Below, piece by piece: positions 1 through 32,155 of a stretch of DNA of 32,155 nucleotides (positions are counted from its first letter, which is position 1; each line of letters begins with the position of its first letter). Origin of the DNA: Actinomycetota bacterium (GTDB taxonomy: Bacteria; Actinomycetota; Acidimicrobiia; Acidimicrobiales; JAMCPL01). Location of the stretch: the NCBI GenBank assembly GCA_023379725.1, contig JAMCPC010000121.1, positions 1 through 32,155 on the forward strand, written 5' to 3'. Both the position numbers and the translations under genes were made by a program. The notes under the pieces are model-generated. The model worked only from the letters and a program-made list of their open reading frames with translations, searched no databases and was not told the DNA's origin.

Positions 1-497
1 CTTACCATACCATCTACACTTGAGATGGTCATGCCTGTCAACAACTCTGCCTCAGGGATGTTTGGCGTCAGGATATATGTATATGGCACCAGTAGCTCTC
101 GATACGCCTCTATACCTTCCTCGCTTACCAGCAGATTTCCCGACGATGCCGCAAGCACGGGATCAACTACTACATTTGGCAATTCTCCGGCTTTTATCCG
201 AGACGCAATAGTTGCAACGTTCTCTGCTGTGGCAAGCATACCCACCTTGGTGGCTCTAACCGGTGATCCTGCCACCGCAAGGTCTATCTGTAGACCTAGA
301 AGATCTTTCGGCACAGGCATTATTCCTGCTACTGTGGTAGAATCTTGTGCGGTTACTGCAGTGACTGCATATACACCGCGTACTCCAATTGATTCCAGGG
401 TGCGTATATCGGCCTGCATCCCTGCCCCTCCACTGGAATCTGATCCGGAGATTACAAGGACACCACCAGGGGCGTCATTCGACTGATGAGAACCCAT
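1..497 (-). CDS. thiD: hydroxymethylpyrimidine/phosphomethylpyrimidine kinase ThiD, N-terminal part; the gene runs off the window start
   Basis: Absent from the ORF track because it is open-ended. My minus-strand translation from the ATG (complement of 495-497) reads MGSHQSNDAPGGVLVISGSDSSGGAGMQADIRTLESIGVRGVYAVTAVTAQDS..., the ThiD N-terminal signature. It lies 28 nt downstream of the thiG stop on the same strand. Confidence 0.85.
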   Translation of the reverse strand, partial: MGSHQSNDAPGGVLVISGSDSSGGAGMQADIRTLESIGVRGVYAVTAVTAQDSTTVAGIMPVPKDLLGLQIDLAVAGSPVRATKVGMLATAENVATIASRIKAGELPNVVVDPVLAASSGNLLVSEEGIEAYRELLVPYTYILTPNIPEAELLTGMTISSVDGMV

Positions 498-522
498 GGC
501 TATTTACGGGACGAGCCACTAG
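466..522 (+). repeat. Partial copy E (right-hand ~57 nt) of the interspersed element, spanning the thiG stop / thiD start junction
   Basis: CCAGGGGCGTCATTCGACTGATGAGAACCCATGGCTATTTACGGGACGAGCCACTAG aligns without gaps to the right arm of copy C (reverse complement) at 44 of 57 positions, including the blocks CCAGGGGCGTCAT and AACCCATGG. Confidence 0.75.
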
Positions 523-525
523 GTG

Positions 526-1338
526 TCATTCGGCTGAGGAAAACCCACGGCCATTTGCAAGACCGTCCGTCAGGTCGGCCATACCTTCCATAGATGAGGA
601 TGCAAGTGCCCTGAATCGTCTTGGTATCCTTCCAGCCAGATACGCATCGTGTCCAGCTATAATAGCATTTTTCATTGCAGATGCCATCATTGGAGGGTTC
701 TGTGCCCTTGTAATTGCAGAGGCCACTAGCACTCCAGAGCAACCCAATTCCATTGCCTGTGCAGCCTCTGATGCAGTACCAATACCGGCATCAAGTATTA
801 CCGGCACATTCACGGTGTCGACTATCAAAGCAATATTGTGCGGATTGCGGATTCCAAGGCCACTGCCTATCGGAGCTCCCAGCGGCATAACGGCGACGCA
901 ACCTACCTGTTCAAGACGTTTGGCAACTATGGGGTCGTCGGTAGTATATGGAAACACCTTGAAACCCTTGTCGTATAGGATTTCTGCCGCTCTCAACAGT
1001 TCGTTTACATCCGGTAATAGGGTATCTTCATCTCCTATTACCTCCAACTTCACGTAATCTGTTTCGAGTGCATCCCTGGCCATTTCAGCTGTAAACACTG
1101 CTTCGTGAGCATTGTAGCAACCTGCAGTGTTTGGAAGGACAGTGACGTTATGCTCTTCGAGTACATCCAATATCGATCTTCCTGATGCAACCGATACACG
1201 TCGCATTGCAACTGTCGCCACTGAAGCCTCTGATGCCTGTATGACTCTTTCCAGCACTTCATGGCTCTGCACTCCGCCTGTGCCGAGCAGCAGTCGGTGA
1301 GTTATTTTCAGACCCGCAATATCGACATTCTCTTCCAT
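526..1338 (-). CDS. thiG: thiazole synthase ThiG
   Basis: 270-aa ORF with a typical ThiG sequence (LLLGTGG..., [14 protein letters not shown]). Its start overlaps the thiS stop (TAATG). Confidence 0.95.
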
Positions 1339-2945: not shown

Positions 2946-5900
2946 TTGGATGACGATTGGAACGTTAAAATGAATCCTGCCTGTAAAAGCAGTAATCGCC
3001 GCGTACTCGCTGTGAGCACTGAACAAAACACTACCAGCCTTTATAACCCTGCCTTTGAGCATGATTCATGCGGGATAGCTCTTATAGCTGATATCCACGG
3101 CAACAAGAGCCATGGCATAGTGGAGGATGCGTTGATCGCCCTTCAAAATCTGGCACATCGTGGTGCGACTGGAGCTGAAGAGGAGACTGGCGATGGCGCT
3201 GGGATACTGCTTCAAATGCCTCACGATTTTCTAAAATCACAGACAGAGCTGGGTATAGAAGAAATAGGGGAGGGTAAATATGCCTGTGGTATCGTGTTTA
3301 TGCCCAGGGATGACGATTCGGTACAGAAGTCGATGAGGCGCATAGAAGAATTGGCTAGAGAAGAATCCCTGAAGGTACTTGGTTGGCGCCAAGTACCTGT
3401 GAATGATACATCCATTGGTACCACTGCTGCCGAGGCTATATGCTCATTTTGGCAGGTGGCGGTGGCTCCAACTGCGCCAGTCGACCATGGTGATTTGCAA
3501 GACGGGCCACCAGTGGCCCGTCTTGCAAATAGCGTGACGTTATCCGGCAAGTCAGGGGCATCATCTGGCAAGGCCGAAGACGAAGGCGTAGCCGGTAGCT
3601 ACGTTGAGGATGAGAACGCCGTCAGGGGTGCCATCTGGCCGGCGGGAACCCATGGTGATTTGCGAGACGGGCCACTAGCTATCGATAGAATGGCGTTTTG
3701 CTTAAGAAAACGGGTAGAGCATGAGTTGGATAGTGTCTACGTAGCTTCATTGTCAAGCAGGACAATAGTGTACAAGGGTATGCTGACCTCCCATCAGCTC
3801 TCGTCGTTCTATCCTGACCTATCGGAACCATCCCTTAAGTCAGCTATTGCGATGGTCCATTCCAGGTTCTCCACCAATACCTTTCCATCATGGCCACTTG
3901 CGCATCCCTACAGATATATTGCCCACAACGGCGAGATAAACACTCTGATCAGCAATCGTAATTGGATGCGTGCCAGAGAAGCACTACTCGACTCAGACAT
4001 AATCCAGGGAGATCTGTCCAGGCTCTTTCCTATATGTACCCCCGGTGCATCCGATTCAGCCTCTTTTGATGAGGTAATAGAGCTGCTGCACCTTGGCGGT
4101 AGGTCGTTGCCTCATGCAATACTTATGATGATCCCTGAGGCGTGGGAGAAAAACACAGATATGGATCCACGTATGAGGGATTTCTATATGTACCATGCAT
4201 CCATAATGGAACCATGGGACGGGCCAGCAGCCATGATCTTCACTGATGGCATCATTGCCGGAGGAGTACTGGACAGAAACGGTTTTAGACCATCGCGTTG
4301 GCTTCTCACGAAGGGCGGAAAACTGGTACTTGGCTCTGAGACTGGACTACTGGATATAAATCCAGTAGACATAGTCAGAAAGGGGCGGCTACAGCCGGGG
4401 AAGATGTTCCTTATAGATACATCACAGGGACGTATAATAGAGGATACAGAGATCAAGAGCGCACTAGCATCAGAGCATCCTTACGGTCAATGGTTACAGG
4501 AACAGCAGGTACATCTAAGCGATATGCCATACCGAAAGATGCTGACTCCTCAGCACTCTTCGGTGGTCACACATCAGCGCCTTTTCGGATATACCAATGA
4601 GGATCTAAAGGTAATTATCGGCCCTATGGCCATGGGAGGCCAAGAAGCAGTAGGATCCATGGGCAACGACGCGGCTATTGCAGTATTATCAACGCGCCCC
4701 AGGCTCCTGTATGACTACTTTACCCAGCTATTTGCTCAAGTCACCAACCCGCCACTCGACGCAATAAGGGAAGAACTTGTCACATCCACAAGGACTCAGA
4801 TAGGGTCCGAGGGAAATTTGCTCGATCCTCAACCAGTCTCATGTAAGCAGATTATTCTTGAATATCCAATCATAGACAACGAAGAGCTTGCCAAGTTAAT
4901 GTACGTAAACGAGCATGGAGAGACACCTGGATTCAAAGCATTTACCGTTGACGGGTTGTTCGATTCCTCGGGAGGTGCAAATGCCCTAAGAGATGCTATC
5001 GAATCAGTGCGTTCAAAGGTAAGTGATGCTATTGCGAATGGAGCCAACATAATCATACTCTCAGACCGCAACGCCAGCGCTGAACTAGCTCCTATCCCGA
5101 TGTTGTTGCTTGTCTCTGCCATCCATGAGCACCTGGTGAGAGAGCGCACCAGGACAAAGGTTGGGTTAATCGCTGAGAGTGGTGAGGCCAGAGAGGTTCA
5201 CCATATGGCTCTATTGGTGGCCTATGGAGCATCAGCTATCAACCCCTACCTTGCCTTTGAAACAGTAGATGATATGGTTGCCAGCGGTTTGTTGGAGGAC
5301 ATTTCTGCACTTGAGGCTCGTCGGCACTACATCAAAGCCTGCACAAAGGGGATAGTAAAGGTAATGTCTAAGATGGGTATATCCACAGTGGCATCCTATA
5401 TCGGTTCGCATGTATTTGAAGCCATCGGTCTGGACAGGGATTTCGTGGATGAATACTTTAGTGGTACTACTAGTAGGATAGGCGGCGTAGGGCTCAAAGT
5501 TGTCACAGAGGAGGTATTGAAGCGCCATCGCAGAGCATTCAGCCGGTTGCAGTCGGTACGGGCTCATCGCGAACTAGAGACCGGAGGAGAGTATCAGTGG
5601 CGTCGCGAAGGAGAGGCACACCTGCTGGCCCCAAAGGTAGTATTCAAGGTACAGCAGGCCGTAAGGAACCGCGATTATTCATTGTTCAAGGAATATACCG
5701 ATCTCGTCGATGAGCAATCTGAGCAACTTTGTACATTGAGGGGTATGATGCACTTCAAGAAAGGGGTGAATTCGCCCATTTCCCTGAGCGAGGTGGAATC
5801 GGTATCCAGCATTGTTAAGCGTTTTTCAACCGGTGCCATGTCGTATGGATCGATATCGAAAGAAGCCCATGAGACACTCGCCATTGCAATGAACAGGCTG

Positions 5901-8021
5901 GGTGGAAGGTCGAATACCGGTGAAGGAGGAGAGGACCCCGATAGATTTACAGTAGATCCGAATGGGGATTCTCGGCGTAGTGCCATTAAGCAGGTTGCCT
6001 CGGGACGTTTTGGTGTAACTATAGAATACCTGGTCAATTCAGACGACATACAGATCAAGATCTCCCAGGGAGCCAAACCAGGAGAGGGTGGTCAGTTGCC
6101 GCCGCATAAGGTGTACCCCTGGATAGCGCGTACCAGATATTCTACACCGGGAGTAGGACTTATCTCGCCCCCACCGCACCATGATATTTACTCAATAGAG
6201 GATATTGCTCAGCTCATACACGACCTAAAGTGCTCTAACCCCAATGCTCGCGTACATGTAAAGCTGGTTGCTGAGGTAGGTGTAGGTACTGTAGCGGCAG
6301 GGGTTGCCAAAGCGAAATCAGATGTAGTACTCATATCTGGACATGACGGTGGCACCGGTGCCGCGCCGCTTACCTCTATCAAGCATGCAGGCGTTCCCTG
6401 GGAGATGGGGTTGGCCGAGACAAACCAGGTACTGGTAGCAAACGGCCTACGTGATCGTATAGTCGTTCAGGTGGACGGCCAATTAAAGACCGGCCGTGAC
6501 GTGGTGATCGGAGCGTTACTTGGGGCTGAGGAGTTTGGTTTTGCCACTATGGCTCTGGTTGCACTCGGCTGCGTCATGATGAGAGTATGCCATCTTGACA
6601 CCTGTCCGGTAGGCATCGCCACCCAGAATCCCGTACTGCGTAATCGTTTTACAGGAAAGCCGGATTACGTAGAGGCATTCTTTGAGATGATCGCCGAAGA
6701 GGTACGAGAGTACCTCGCTGAGCTGGGATTGAGATCGTTGGAGGATGCTATAGGCCGGGTGGATCTGCTTGATGTGGAACCTGCCGTAGAGCACTGGAAG
6801 GCACGCGGCCTGGATCTTTCTCCCATACTTACCTTGCCTGCAAATAATTACGGGACTGAACGTTTTCAGTGCGCCGCTCAGAACCATGGAATCGACTCGC
6901 AGTTGGACTGGGAGTTTATTGATGAGTGCATAGCAGGGATTGAGCAGGGCCATCCGGTGGCAGTCGAACTTCCCATAAGAAACGTCCACAGAACTGTAGG
7001 GACACTGCTAAGTCATACCATCGTTTCACGCTTCGGTGCAGGAGGTTCCGGTGGTAGTGACGGTGGTGGTAGTGACAGTGATGGGGGTGCTGGTGGTATG
7101 GATGCTGCTGGTGGTGGTAGTGACGGCGGTAGCGGTAGTAGCAGTGGTGCAGGGGGTACGGGGAGTGCAGGTAATCTACCCAATGACTTTATTGCTATAA
7201 AATTAAACGGTTCCGCTGGACAGAGTTTTGGAGCATTCCTGACGAAGGGAGTGACCCTCCAGCTGGTCGGTGATGCCAATGATTACCTGGGCAAGGGGCT
7301 GTCAGGTGGCAGAATCATTGTAGTGCCTCCACCAGAATCACTGTTCGCTGCTGAGGAACAGATTATCGCGGGTAATGTAATACTCTATGGAGCCACCAGT
7401 GGCGAATTATTCCTGAGAGGGCAAGCCGGTGAAAGATTCTGCGTAAGGAATTCCGGTGCTATTGCGGTTGCGGAGGGAATAGGCGACCACGGATGTGAGT
7501 ACATGACTGGTGGTATAGCTGTTGTATTAGGACCAGTAGGTAGAAACTTTGCTGCCGGCATGTCTGGTGGAGTTGCCTATCTCTATATTGGAGATCTTGA
7601 AAAAACTCCTTGGGAAAATCCAGGTAGTACGGTAACTCAGAGTGATAAGAGTAATATAGCCAATACAGCCAATATGGTCCAGGAGGTTCATGGATCTGGT
7701 GGCGGAGAGGGTATTGTTGAGTACGATATAACTCAATATCAAGTCGCTCAACTATATATTGCCAAGCATATCAATACAGAGATGGTAGACGTGATTGCGC
7801 TTGATGAGGAGGACATCGAATTATTGAGAGACCTGTTGACCAGATATCGTAGTGAGACTGGATCGACAGTTGCCACAACCATATTACACGACTTCAATAG
7901 AGTCTCGAGTCTGTTCTTGAAGGTCATGCCACGAGATTATGCAAAAATTATACAGATTACGAAATTGGCTGAAGCTGAAGGGAGATCGGTAGACGATGCA
8001 GTTATGGAGGCTACGCGATGA
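2946..8021 (+). CDS. gltB: glutamate synthase large subunit GltB, carrying in-frame insertions
   Basis: 1691-aa ORF. It has the Ntn amidotransferase N-terminus ([20 protein letters not shown]), the FMN/Fe-S domain and the C-terminal GXGXG domain ([18 protein letters not shown]). Alternative ATG start at 2970. Confidence 0.97.
3485..3678 (+). mobile_element. Copy A of the ~169-bp TIR-flanked interspersed element (3511-3678), preceded by a 26-bp duplicate of its own right end (3485-3510). It lies entirely inside gltB and is in frame.
   Basis: Aligns end to end with copies B, C and D. CCATGGTGATTTGCRAGACGGGCCAC occurs at 3485-3510 and 3650-3675, exactly 165 bp (55 codons) apart. The gltB frame stays open. 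Confidence 0.9.
7035..7172 (+). repeat. Imperfect GGTGGTAGTGAC-type tandem repeats encoding a Gly/Ser/Asp-rich tract inside GltB
   Basis: Translation is [46 protein letters not shown]. The DNA shows repeated ggtggtagtgac units. Confidence 0.85.
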
Positions 8022-9562: not shown

Positions 9563-9927
9563 TTCGCAAATCAATACCTAGGTAATTGGTATTGAACTGC
9601 CCACAGCTCGGGGAAAGCGGTTACATCCGCCGTGATGGTGCAGGTAAGAGGTTCTCGCATTGTCGATTATGTGCGCAATCCAACAAAAACACCAATCAAC
9701 CAGACAAAGGTAACTTGTTCCATGCCCCCCGGGCAACCCCCCCGGCAACCCAACCGGGAACTTCCGGCGAGAGCTACCAATCAACCATATAAAAGTCACT
9801 TGTTGTATACGCCACGCTCTGAACAGGTAATATGCTTCAACCATAACCCTCAAGTGCAGGTTTAGGGTTTTAATATCTGCTTTTATTGTCATAAAATTGT
9901 GTATTAGCGTTACGTTATAAAAATAGC

Positions 9928-15393: not shown

Positions 15394-15559
15394 CTAGTGT
15401 AGCGTCCCGCAAATAACCATGGTTCCCACCAGCTAAATGAGCCCCTGACGGTGTTTTCATCCTCAACGTAGCTACCGGCTACGCCTTCGTCTTCGGCCTT
15501 GTCAGACAACACCATAACTTGCCGGATAGTGTCACGCTATTTGCGGGACACTACACTAG
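15394..15559 (-). mobile_element. Copy B of the interspersed element (166 bp, three 1-nt deletions relative to C/D), between convergent gcvPB and the histidine kinase
   Basis: Full-length alignment to copies A, C and D, with TIRs CTAGTGTAGCGTCCCGCAAATA / TATTTGCGGGACACTACACTAG. It overlaps the 3' end of the kinase CDS (15537-15559). Confidence 0.9.
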
Positions 15560-17216
15560 CTGGGGGTTCGGATAGCGGAAGGCGTATCACTACCTCCGTT
15601 CCATCTATACCGCTCTCATGTGAATATATAGATACGGTGCCGTGCATAGCTTCCACCAGTTCCGATACTATAGCGAGCCCAAGCCCGGTACCGCCGCCAG
15701 TGCTTCTTGAGGTGTCTGCACGATAGTGCCGCTCGAATACATGAGCCAGGTCATCGACGGCTATACCGGGTCCGTCATCCAGCACCGATATTACGGCTTG
15801 ACCATTATCGATTCCGTAATGCAGCTGTATCTTACTGCGTGCATACTTCAGGGCATTATCTACTATGTTCCCGATCGACTGCACCAGCCGTCCTTCGTCG
15901 CCATTTACTACGATATTATTTGGATGGCCCGCGGCAACAGACACGCCTTTATCATTGACTATAATACTCTTCGGGTGAGCGTCGAGGACTGCCTCCGCAT
16001 ACCTCTCATCTTCCAACTTGGAAGCTACCAATTTACCAGCTACGGTATTTGTACTCCCAATACCCCCAATACTCCCAATACCCTCAATACCTACCACCTC
16101 TATTACAATGTCCCGCTGATTTGCAACTGGCAAAAAGATGCTAGCTACCTGCTGTACAACTGCCGATATATCTACCGGCTCCATATCGAGTGAGAACCGT
16201 TTGGCCTGCAGGTGGGCGAGGTCAAGAAGATCACGTATCAGTCCATCAAGTCGGTAAGACTCGTCTCTTATTATCTCTACAGCATGCGTGGTGTCGTCTA
16301 CCGCTCCATCAAGGATAGCCTCCGCATAACCGCGAATCGAGGTGAGGGGAGTTCGCAGGTCATGAGAGACAGAGAGAAGAAACTGACGTTCGGACTGCTG
16401 CGAGTTATCCAGTTGGGTAGCCATGTCGTTTATAGCATCAGCGAGGCTGGCTATTTCCCTGTAGTCACGTTGTGAAGTCTCCACTCTGGCTTCAAGCTCT
16501 CCCGAGGCCAGCCGATTGGCAGTAGACACTACATTGCTAATCGAGCTTGCAAGCCGTCTGGAGAGAATCCATGCCACCAACCCGGCTACCAGAAGCGATG
16601 CCAGCCCGATTAAGATGAAATATTCCAGTCCAGTAGAGGGTGGCTTTATCCTGCGAGTCACCACCATGACGACAAGTTCGTTGGTTGCTACATGTAATAC
16701 TGTATTTATACGGGTGGAGAGGTAGAGGGGAACTGCGGCATATGCCAGATGGCCGCTGGCACCTGCTATGGCGTATCCATTAAGTAGCTTTTGCATATCA
16801 AGTTGCGACGCACTCACACCCGGCGGCAAGGTGGTCAGTGGGGGAGCAATCTGGCCGTTAGGTGAGATAGTAACGACTCCTCCTCCTGAAAATCCAGCAG
16901 CGAGAAGAAGTTTTTTTGTATCGCTGACCCGTACATGTGGAGCTATCGTAGCTACCTCTCTGGCATCGGTCAGAATAGATGAAGCCTCTGATGAAGTCGC
17001 AACATGACCCACCAGGACATAGGTGCCCAGCCAGGTAATAGCAAGGGTACCCATGGCAATGAGCACCATAGATAGAAGTATCCTGTAACGTAGCGACCCG
17101 GTCCTGCCTCCTCTGTACGCACCTGCTCCACTGCCGACATTGAAGATGGAACTGAGGCTCGCCGACACCTGCTGACCCGCTACCTGATCACCAGGCATCC
17201 GTTTGTCATCAGTCAA
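15537..17216 (-). CDS. two-component sensor histidine kinase (two TM segments, HAMP, HisKA, HATPase_c)
   Basis: H-box FLLSVSHDLRTPLTSIRGY, N-box NIVDNALKYA, G-boxes DDGPGI and GGTGLGLAIV. The start overlaps the response regulator stop by 8 nt. Confidence 0.9.
   Translation of the reverse strand: MTDDKRMPGDQVAGQQVSASLSSIFNVGSGAGAYRGGRTGSLRYRILLSMVLIAMGTLAITWLGTYVLVGHVATSSEASSILTDAREVATIAPHVRVSDTKKLLLAAGFSGGGVVTISPNGQIAPPLTTLPPGVSASQLDMQKLLNGYAIAGASGHLAYAAVPLYLSTRINTVLHVATNELVVMVVTRRIKPPSTGLEYFILIGLASLLVAGLVAWILSRRLASSISNVVSTANRLASGELEARVETSQRDYREIASLADAINDMATQLDNSQQSERQFLLSVSHDLRTPLTSIRGYAEAILDGAVDDTTHAVEIIRDESYRLDGLIRDLLDLAHLQAKRFSLDMEPVDISAVVQQVASIFLPVANQRDIVIEVVGIEGIGSIGGIGSTNTVAGKLVASKLEDERYAEAVLDAHPKSIIVNDKGVSVAAGHPNNIVVNGDEGRLVQSIGNIVDNALKYARSKIQLHYGIDNGQAVISVLDDGPGIAVDDLAHVFERHYRADTSRSTGGGTGLGLAIVSELVEAMHGTVSIYSHESGIDGTEVVIRLPLSEPPASVVSRK
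16054..16089 (-). repeat. 9-bp tandem repeat x4 (plus strand CYCCCAATA-like units) encoding GIEGIGSIGGIGS inside the kinase catalytic domain
   Basis: Plus strand reads ctcccaata cccccaata ctcccaata ccctcaata. The period of 9 bp preserves the reading frame. Confidence 0.85.
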
Positions 17217-18004: not shown

Positions 18005-18173
18005 CTAGTGTAGTGTCTCGCAAATAACCATGGGTTCCCGCCAGCCAGATGACGCCCCTGGCGGCGTTCTCGTCCTCAACGTAGCTTCCGGCTACGCCTT
18101 CGTCCTCGGCCTTGCCAGATGACGCCCCTGACTTGCCGGATAACGTCACGCTATTTACGAGACACTACACTAG
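18005..18173 (-). mobile_element. Copy C of the interspersed element (169 bp) in the divergent intergenic region between the response regulator and der
   Basis: TIRs CTAGTGTAGTGTCTCGCAAATA / TATTTACGAGACACTACACTAG. There is an internal 17-nt direct repeat GCCAGATGACGCCCCTG x2 and a central hairpin CGTAGC-TTCCG-GCTACG. Nearly identical to copy D. Confidence 0.93.
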
Positions 18174-18190
18174 ATGCTAAGATATTTATT

Positions 18191-24978: not shown

Positions 24979-25035
24979 CTTGCCTTATTCCCGAGCACTG
25001 GATAATGTAATGCTATTTACGAGATACTAGACTGG
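24979..25035 (-). repeat. Degenerate partial copy (one arm) of the interspersed element, 13 nt upstream of the HAD gene start
   Basis: 25000-25035 (GGATAATGTAATGCTATTTACGAGATACTAGACTGG) matches the copy C end GGATAACGTCACGCTATTTACGAGACACTACACTAG at 30 of 36 positions without gaps. Weaker similarity extends back to CTTGCC at 24979. Confidence 0.6.
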
Positions 25036-31897: not shown

Positions 31898-32155
31898 GTC
31901 TAGTGCAGTGCTTCGTAAATAGCGTGACGTTATCCGGCAAGTCAGGGGCGTCATCTGGCAAGGCCGAGGACGAAGGCGTAGCCGGAAGCTACGTTGAGGA
32001 CGAGAACGCCGTCAGGGGTGTCATCTGCCTGGCGGGAACCCATGGTTATTTGCGAGACACTACACTAAGTTTTGATCTCCTTCCCACGGCTGAACTTGGA
32101 CACTGCTCAAGTCGAGCACTGCCGTACGGTGGATATGGTAAGTTCGTAGAATTAC
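31894..32155 (+). CDS. Open reading frame running through copy D and off the window end. By synteny it may be the N-terminus of the gene downstream of pyrG (a NUDIX hydrolase in mycobacteria). Start unresolved (GTG 31894, GTG 31903 or TTG 32050).
   Basis: My translation: [87 protein letters not shown]... with no stop before the window end. The other two plus-strand frames after the element hit stops. Confidence 0.3.
31900..32069 (+). mobile_element. Copy D of the interspersed element (170 bp), starting 2 nt after the pyrG stop codon
   Basis: Full-length alignment to A, B and C. Left end CTAGTGCAGTGCTTCGTAAATA, right end TATTTGCGAGACACTACACTAAG. Confidence 0.93.

Follow-up and report, generated by a model that had tools for sequence, protein, structure and literature searches.

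We propose, with a probability of about 80%, that the insertion of a miniature inverted-repeat transposable element (MITE), followed by a rearrangement, replaced an ancestral ATGA junction between the thiamine genes thiG and thiD, and that the relics of this element now provide the tail and stop codon of thiG together with the start codon and head of thiD. The junction lies at the left end of the window, i.e., of the whole stretch of 32,155 nucleotides analysed here, where a thiamine operon is read on the minus strand: thiO (1578-2852), thiS (about 1338-1559), thiG (526-1338) and thiD, whose ATG occupies positions 497-495. The host has a G+C content of 49%, and DNA nearly identical to the locus comes from metagenomes of mine drainage, mine tailings and sediments. 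Among named homologues, those closest to the Der GTPase encoded here are found in metagenome assemblies of Acidimicrobiales/Actinobacteria (68-70% identity).

The initial annotation had read the thiG-thiD spacer and the first thiD codons as a partial copy of a repeat, giving the gene its start and its N-terminus; comparison with empty sites in relatives supports this reading, with several corrections and an extension. The minus-strand reading of positions 466-522, CTAGTGGCTCGTCCCGTAAATAGCCATGGGTTCTCATCAGTCGAATGACGCCCCTGG, aligns without gaps to the left arm of element copy C (18005-18061) at 44 of 57 positions, the thiD ATG coincides with the ATG within the CCATGG of the element, and a spacer of 28 nt (498-525) separates it from the thiG TGA. 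Twelve of the first 16 residues of ThiD (MGSHQSNDAPGGVLVI) are identical to the element ORF (MGSRQPDDAPGGVLVL), as had been counted, but residues 13-16 (VLVI) are ancestral to ThiD and do not stem from the element, being present in relatives that carry no relic. The element-specific part of the match is thus restricted to ThiD residues 1-12, nine of which agree with the element ORF MGSRQPDDAPGG. The ATG of copy C, formerly placed from 18028, is located at 18030, and calling this reading “antisense” is arbitrary, since the MITE is non-coding. Relic 1 contains the terminal inverted repeat, the ATG and the 5' part of the short ORF, and it forms most of the spacer as well as the thiD head (Table 1).

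An nhmmer profile made from the four full copies of the window matched relic 1 from 522 to 450 (profile positions 1-73, E=4.3e-12), while the best non-element matches of the same profile in the window all had E>0.3. With relic 1 of the relatives, the E-values ranged from 2e-13 to 5e-13, and the first 51 nt of relic 1 agree with copy C at 38 positions (binomial P about 2e-12). Chance or compositional bias, for which nothing but the shortness of the match speaks, has a negligible probability as the source of this similarity: the E-values in the window and in the relatives argue against it, the profile found no match in 1.3 Mb of 80 unrelated ThiD loci, and the segment behaves as an indel relative to the empty sites.

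Table 1. Coordinates of the relics, the thiamine genes and the full element copies in the window
Feature	Position	Strand	Remarks
Ancestral thiD body, codons 13-165	1..461	-	Pfam Phos_pyr_kin; gene runs off the window
Relic 1, element positions 1 to about 61	462..522	-	nhmmer E=4.3e-12; 44/57 to copy C
Twelve element-derived thiD codons, MGSHQSNDAPGG	462..497	-	9/12 residues as in the element ORF
thiD start codon ATG, by comparison	495..497	-	Kept in all three relic-bearing haplotypes
Relic 2, 51-nt partial left arm	523..573	-	36/51 to relic 1; 34/51 to copies A and C
thiG stop TGA, the TGA of the element's CCAGATGAC block	526..528	-	
Fourteen extra C-terminal ThiG codons encoded by relic 2	529..570	-	
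thiG	526..1338	-	Pfam ThiG 4e-102, residues 7-249
Copy A	3485..3683; full copy about 3509-3683	-	In frame inside gltB
Copy B	15394..15561	+	nhmmer 1.7e-53
Copy C	18005..18174	+	ATG 18030 opens a 32-codon ORF
Copy D	31899..32068	-	nhmmer 3.6e-60

The repeat is represented in the window by four full copies of 168-170 nt with 22-nt terminal inverted repeats, and by fragments at 3485-3513 and about 24998-25034. The first of these fragments is an extra lone terminal repeat carried by copy A; the terminal repeat of copy A is of the GTGGCCCG type, which is nearest to the relics. The terminal repeats fall into two subtypes, GTGTAGTG and GTGGCCCG, and the relics have the second one, as do copy A and the copies in contigs L210, L211 and L212. 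Further copies of the element were found in L089, L210, L211 (two) and L212, and the CCATGG-type ATG is kept in seven of the eight full copies. The element encodes no transposase, its longest internal ORF being 32 codons, and an Rfam search of the window found no known RNA family, at the element or elsewhere.

Its origin can be read from its ends. Among the matches listed, more than 120 metagenome contigs, taken from a wide range of environments, contain the terminal repeat GTGTAGYGTCYCGYAAATA; these matches belong mostly to unrelated MITE/IS630 families, and the scan therefore serves to assign the family and is not a census of this particular MITE. In L126, L139, L148 and L151, two inverted copies of GTGTAGYGTCYCGYAAATA lie ~1.2 kb apart and enclose an ORF of 361-376 aa, which matches NCBIfam NF033545 (IS630 family transposase) with 248-279 bits, the cutoff being 100 bits, and also the Pfam DDE_3 and helix-turn-helix domains. 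Copies B and C are bounded by CTA/G...C/TAG (slashes mark the borders), and the IS630 copies show the same pattern; the left end of copy D is TTAG, and copy A has CTGG at the end abutting the second terminal repeat. In the thiD relics, which lack one end, the target duplication cannot be read. According to PMC2170065 and the papers of Tenzen & Ohtsubo that it cites, IS630 duplicates TA within CTAG. Since the terminal repeats are common to IS630 elements and the borders are of the CTAG/TA kind, the ~170-nt repeat is, judging by its sequence, a non-autonomous MITE of the IS630 family inserting at TA within CTAG. No autonomous IS630 partner was found on the organism's own contigs.

One more copy deserves a comment. 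Positions 597-763 of L212, a contig of another organism with 70% G+C that comes from the same mine-metagenome project, hold a full copy (134 bits) that is about 85% identical, including the internal region, and has CTTGGG in place of the ATG motif. Such a copy suggests spread between very different hosts, and a full element on a contig of this composition implies that the family is wider than the clade of the window.

The relatives that a ThiD search usefully returned were P0001 (92% identical, with the N-terminus MGSRQPYDTLGGVLVISGSD), the window's own cluster, and P0003 and P0004 (75-76%), while a scan of GTDB representative genomes with ThiD gave no close relative, the best identity being 51%. 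All of the relatives' contigs retain the order thiO-thiS-thiG-thiD. When the junctions were aligned, a block of roughly 100 nt proved to be missing altogether from L087 and L088; in both of them, as in a contig of sequencing run X2, the junction reads ...TTGGCATGAAGCCCACTCCGAAGGTTCTC, with thiG stopping and thiD starting in a shared ATGA. In L087, GAC TTG GCA TGA overlaps ATG AAG CCC ACT CCG AAG GTT CTC, so that ThiD starts MKPTPKVLVISGSD; in L088, it starts MMPAQKAPRVLVIFGSD. These empty-site heads, MKPTPK or MMPAQKAPR, sit directly before VLVI(S/F)GSD. Run X2 holds the L087-like contig beside the relic-bearing form; the joint skips 455-574, and the intervening letters are GAGAACCTTCGGAGTGGGCTTCATGCCAA. 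Both relics are present in L089 (99% identical) and in L081-L086 (six assemblies). Overall, the relic junction was seen in at least 10 independent assemblies, and it is therefore not a misassembly.

A comparison of the junction in relatives had been suggested with the first reading, and the empty sites in L087, L088 and the X2 contig show that the relic is an insertion. Distant genomes sharing the ThiD N-terminus were looked for as well, and the MGS... start occurred in 0 of 117 other ThiD homologues, so that this check, named beforehand as a possible refutation, did not refute the first reading. Homology within the ThiD family begins at query residue 13-14 in the GTDB representative genomes and at 13 in PDB entries, and the median lead before strand beta-1 among ThiD homologues is five residues. 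One clade carries element sequence at the thiG-thiD site, two or three lineages have none there, and the filled site is rearranged, rather than carrying a clean footprint of insertion or excision; no intermediate with a full element copy at this junction was found among the relatives. Keeping in mind that L087, L088 and the X2 contig have no insert and retain the ATGA overlap, the relic is, on the comparison of these two or three lineages with an empty site, the derived condition, and it took the place of an ancestral, presumably coupled junction.

The spacer itself varies among relic-bearing relatives. In L081 (about 2215-2250), and likewise in L082-L086, it contains a 17-nt tandem duplication (CCTCAGCCGAATGATG / CCCTCAGCCCAATGACAC), by which the L081 spacer reaches 45 nt and the thiG TGA comes into frame with thiD. 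The thiG-thiD junction appears to be prone to slippage.

Directly upstream of relic 1, there is a second relic, which was absent from the initial annotation. It adjoins relic 1 in tandem and in register, with a spacing of 51 nt, and its alignments to relic 1 and to copies A and C correspond to binomial P between 1e-10 and 4e-9. Scored against the element profile, this segment had E-values of 8.6e-4 (window) and 1.5e-4 (L089) and is, alone, only marginally significant; the whole segment is missing from L087, L088 and the X2 contig. It is read by thiG in a frame other than the one that thiD uses in relic 1. With the added codons, ThiG is 270 aa long in the window, versus 257-258 aa in L087 and L088, where it ends ...ADLA and ...ANL; an exact look-up of the window ThiG returned no identical record. 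Five positions are common to relics 1 and 2 and differ from both copy A and copy C, which favours a 51-nt tandem duplication or a sequence conversion between the relics. A terminator-like hairpin, ACGGTC-TTGCAAAT-GGCCGT followed by GGGTTTTCC, occupies positions 547-566 (minus strand), where relic 2 encodes the ThiG tail; this weak hairpin does not rise above the chance level of the scan.

Such evidence allows us to outline how the junction may have arisen. In the ancestor, the two genes would have shared an ATGA overlap, presumably with coupled translation. An element copy would then have inserted at or beside the last thiG codons, and a later rearrangement would have left two tandem left-arm fragments of 51 to 61 nt, the probable steps being a 51-nt tandem duplication and a deletion by which element and thiD were fused across the 8-nt microhomology GTTCTCGT. 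The element (GCGTTCTCGTCC) and the empty site (GGTTCTCGTAAT) do have these 8 nt in common; they are plausible as the microhomology for the fusing deletion, and could also be a coincidence. Either one insertion with a duplication or two insertions with deletions would fit as the order of events. On the way, thiG would have lost its former stop, and thiD its former ATG with about six codons. The present state can be read directly from the sequence: thiG runs through the upstream fragment, gaining 14 residues, and terminates in relic 2 at the element's TGA, while thiD can begin only in relic 1, since the downstream fragment provides both the 28-nt spacer and the sole available ATG, followed by 12 codons that continue in frame into strand beta-1 of ThiD.

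It might be argued that the direction was the reverse, the MITE having been born here when an IS630 end captured the 5' region of thiD, so that the junction is the progenitor of the family. The element interior is indeed unrelated to the IS630 copies found, and the element ORF continues GGVLVL, which recalls the GGVLVI of ThiD. We consider this course of events very improbable, because MKPTPK or MMPAQKAPR, and not MGS..., forms the ancestral ThiD head seen in L087, L088 and the X2 contig, and because the resemblance past GG amounts to 8 nt that already existed in the empty site. Moreover, the full copy of 134 bits in L212 belongs to a different organism, and the junction has truncated tandem left arms only, with no right arm.

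On this comparison, the ATG donated by the relic must be the start of thiD. Between the window and L087, codons 13-26 show seven synonymous and no non-synonymous changes, a TAA in the thiD frame precedes the ATG by 9 nt, and no other ATG, GTG or TTG is present between that TAA and M27 in the window, L081 or L089. The protein matches Pfam PF08543 (Phos_pyr_kin, HMP / HMP-P kinase) with 1.1e-46 and has the GSD..GGAG motif, and PDB entries of ThiD match it, down to 4e-38, from query residue 13; the family-invariant residues upstream of M27 are G18, S19, D20, S21, G24, A25 and G26. No haplotype has lost the ATG or the reading frame, whereas the spacer tolerates a 17-nt indel. For a start in the relic, the predicted N-terminal tryptic peptide of ThiD is (M)GSHQSNDAPGGVLVISGSDSSGGAGMQADIR.

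Public gene calls tell otherwise: P0002 (L089), P0003 (L087) and P0004 (L088) all have ThiD begin at M27 (MQADIRT). Together with the lack of a Shine-Dalgarno (SD) motif before the relic ATG, these three models favour the idea that the relic is an untranslated spacer and that ThiD starts downstream, at M27 or at a non-canonical codon near 13. This is improbable in our opinion, as a start at M27 removes strand beta-1 and the invariant GSDSSGGAG motif, the purely synonymous changes in codons 13-26 indicate that these codons are translated, the relic ATG is the sole candidate between the in-frame TAA and M27, and L087 and L088 have an ATG of their own just upstream of VLVI. In the latter two contigs, the gene calls missed the real ATG, which overlaps the thiG TGA. 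In practice, automatic gene calling in this lineage wrongly sets the start of ThiD at M27 and cuts off invariant residues.

The gene behind the relic start remains, by the measure of its substitutions, a functional one. The dN/dS of the thiD body is 0.09-0.24, with 0.09 against L081 (dS 0.34) and about 0.15 against L087 and L088. One could suppose instead that thiD became dispensable after the insertion, or is a decaying pseudogene with a functionless “start”, given the loss of its coupling to thiG and the missing SD. We assign very little probability to this scenario: the low dN/dS of the gene body against L081 was kept up while a dS of 0.34 accumulated since the insertion, the ORFs of P0001 and L089 are full length with all invariant residues present, and frame and ATG are maintained in three haplotypes.

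Compared with this conserved body, the head evolves freely. The relic codons diverge at non-synonymous sites 7-12 times faster than the rest of thiD, dN being 0.076 in the head and 0.006 in the body for the L089 comparison, and 0.21 and 0.03 for the L081 comparison. Four of 36 nt in the head differ between the window and L089, versus five of 459 nt in the body (Fisher P=0.002). The head thus diverges roughly at the synonymous rate, and the 12 relic codons can be taken as roughly neutral on these counts; the dN/dS of the head is 0.26-0.45. In the AlphaFold2 model of P0001 (mean pLDDT 87), residues 1-10 score about 55 and beta-1 runs from residue 12; the head thus lies outside the ThiD fold as predicted. 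The 12-residue head is an unconstrained, probably disordered extension, and we infer that the ATG and the reading frame matter rather than the head sequence. Population variants also cluster in the relic-encoded head, at window positions 473, 479 and 480. The L089-type SYDT form of the head occurs in runs X14, X18 and X19, and a short contig end of run X20 at 485 suggests a further head beginning M-D-S-R, in which the ATG is kept.

How the ribosome reaches this ATG is less obvious. No SD-like motif was found upstream of it, folding of the RNA around the start gave z-scores of -0.3 to +0.5, the same as for shuffled sequence, and the promoter and terminator scan yielded matches at chance level, with no promoter that could be placed for a leaderless thiD mRNA. 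Three metatranscriptomes from the same study contained nothing from the thiG-thiD locus. In experiments with E. coli and Haloferax, gaps of about 20 nt nearly abolish termination-reinitiation (PMC10666635). As the gap of 28-45 nt at the relic junction should abolish it too, de novo, SD-independent initiation at the thiD ATG is the likelier mode, and the ancestral coupling has probably been lost.

The thiamine operon is not the only place where the element is read as coding sequence. Copy A is located in frame in the amidotransferase domain of GltB (gltB, 2946-8021, plus strand), where it splits Pfam GATase_2 at profile position 142/143 and adds about 66 residues. A histidine kinase gene (15537-17216, minus strand) takes its last ~8 codons (SVVSRK) and its TAG stop from the right terminal repeat of copy B (15537-15561). 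A search with six-frame peptides of the element detected at least four proteins; the window GltB was not among them, so this count understates the coding use. One of the affected proteins is P0121, an ABC ATPase resembling SufC, whose interior contains an in-frame copy that is read in the same frame as in GltB. In L210, a full copy (2997-3165) is situated exactly at the TAG stop of miaB, a CTAG target, directly before miaA. The annotation of MiaA (P0122, whose cluster has 36 members) places the start in the terminal repeat, the entire element then being translated; a TTG in the miaA frame of L210 could serve as start instead, and it too is located in the element, so that any possible start codon lies inside it. 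PdxT (P0123, L211) was considered as a second case of a donated start codon and rejected, since PdxT has a normal N-terminus when read from a GTG that closely follows the element, and the annotated start is probably over-called.

It is tempting to see in this a “translation-neutral” MITE family, with a stop-free frame, a conserved ATG and TGA in its arms, whose CTAG targeting favours gene ends and operon junctions; we regard such a generalization as doubtful. If it were true, the element would supply a new stop upstream and a new start downstream, as in thiG/thiD and miaB/miaA, and would spread through essential operons at a lower polar cost.

Some repeats of other kinds were noticed in the window. 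In gltB, the Glu_synthase and GXGXG domains are separated by a Gly/Ser/Asp-rich low-complexity repeat (7044-7154, units GGTGGTAGTGAC...), and such a linker is unusual for this enzyme. The histidine kinase gene contains four units of a 9-nt tandem repeat, TACYCCCAA, at 16052-16087, and a pair of 41-nt direct repeats (9691-9731 and 9776-9816), 85 nt apart, is found upstream of a MerR-like gene.

Finally, we would like to place the junction among known systems. In-frame fusions of MITEs are known for the Rickettsia palindromic elements (RPEs), intragenic ERIC, BOX, QMITE1 and Anabaena MITEs, as described in a 2024 review (PMC10969869), and for other prokaryotes, the same review holds that a comparable evolution of proteins through MITEs “is conceivable”. 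The thiG-thiD relic is thus a clean example of an already known phenomenon; the principle is established, and the gain is modest. RPEs, as the review summarizes them after Ogata et al. (2000, 2002), resemble our element in being short (~150-170 nt), multi-copy and inverted at the ends, and, by the same account, they too occur in frame in housekeeping genes and add peptide segments that the fold tolerates. The RPE-like hosts of the element described here are GltB, the SufC-like ATPase, MiaA, the ThiG tail and the ThiD head. The differences from RPEs are that the host here, an uncultured actinobacterium of Acidimicrobiales-like type found in mine drainage, is unrelated and free-living, that the element has clear IS630-type ends and a CTAG/TA target, and that the thiG-thiD case is a truncated junction relic that donates a stop and a start rather than an internal insertion. 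The element thus behaves like an RPE, whereas by descent it belongs to the MITEs of the IS630 family; with ends of the IS630 type and an actinobacterium as host, homology to RPE-1 through RPE-10 is unlikely. This extends RPE-like tolerance of in-frame MITEs to a free-living, uncultured actinobacterium of acid mines, whereas outside Rickettsia it had only been conjectured by the 2024 review.

With MITEs derived from IS630/Tc1-mariner, the element shares the terminal repeats of the 1.2-kb IS630 elements, the borders with TA in CTAG and the lack of a transposase. In comparison with other MITEs of ~140-270 nt that have the same ends, only the terminal repeats are common, and the internal 120 nt are family-specific. 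In the ERIC, BOX, QMITE1 and Anabaena cases, a MITE ORF is likewise fused with a host ORF; as presented in PMC10969869, however, those are mostly internal or terminal additions whose effect is not known, whereas here the relatives show what was replaced, namely, an ATGA overlap and about six codons. This overlap in L087, L088 and the X2 contig is the arrangement known from ATGA termination-reinitiation coupling (PMC6728339, PMC10666635), in contrast to which the overlap is gone at the relic junction, leaving a gap of 28 nt in the window and 45 nt in L081. Overall, we might conclude that selfish DNA was recruited here as coding sequence in two genes that both remain under purifying selection, with the states “before” and “after” both available; what sets this case apart from the known ones is a truncated tandem relic at an operon junction that donates both a stop and a start, with the ancestral ATGA still visible in relatives.
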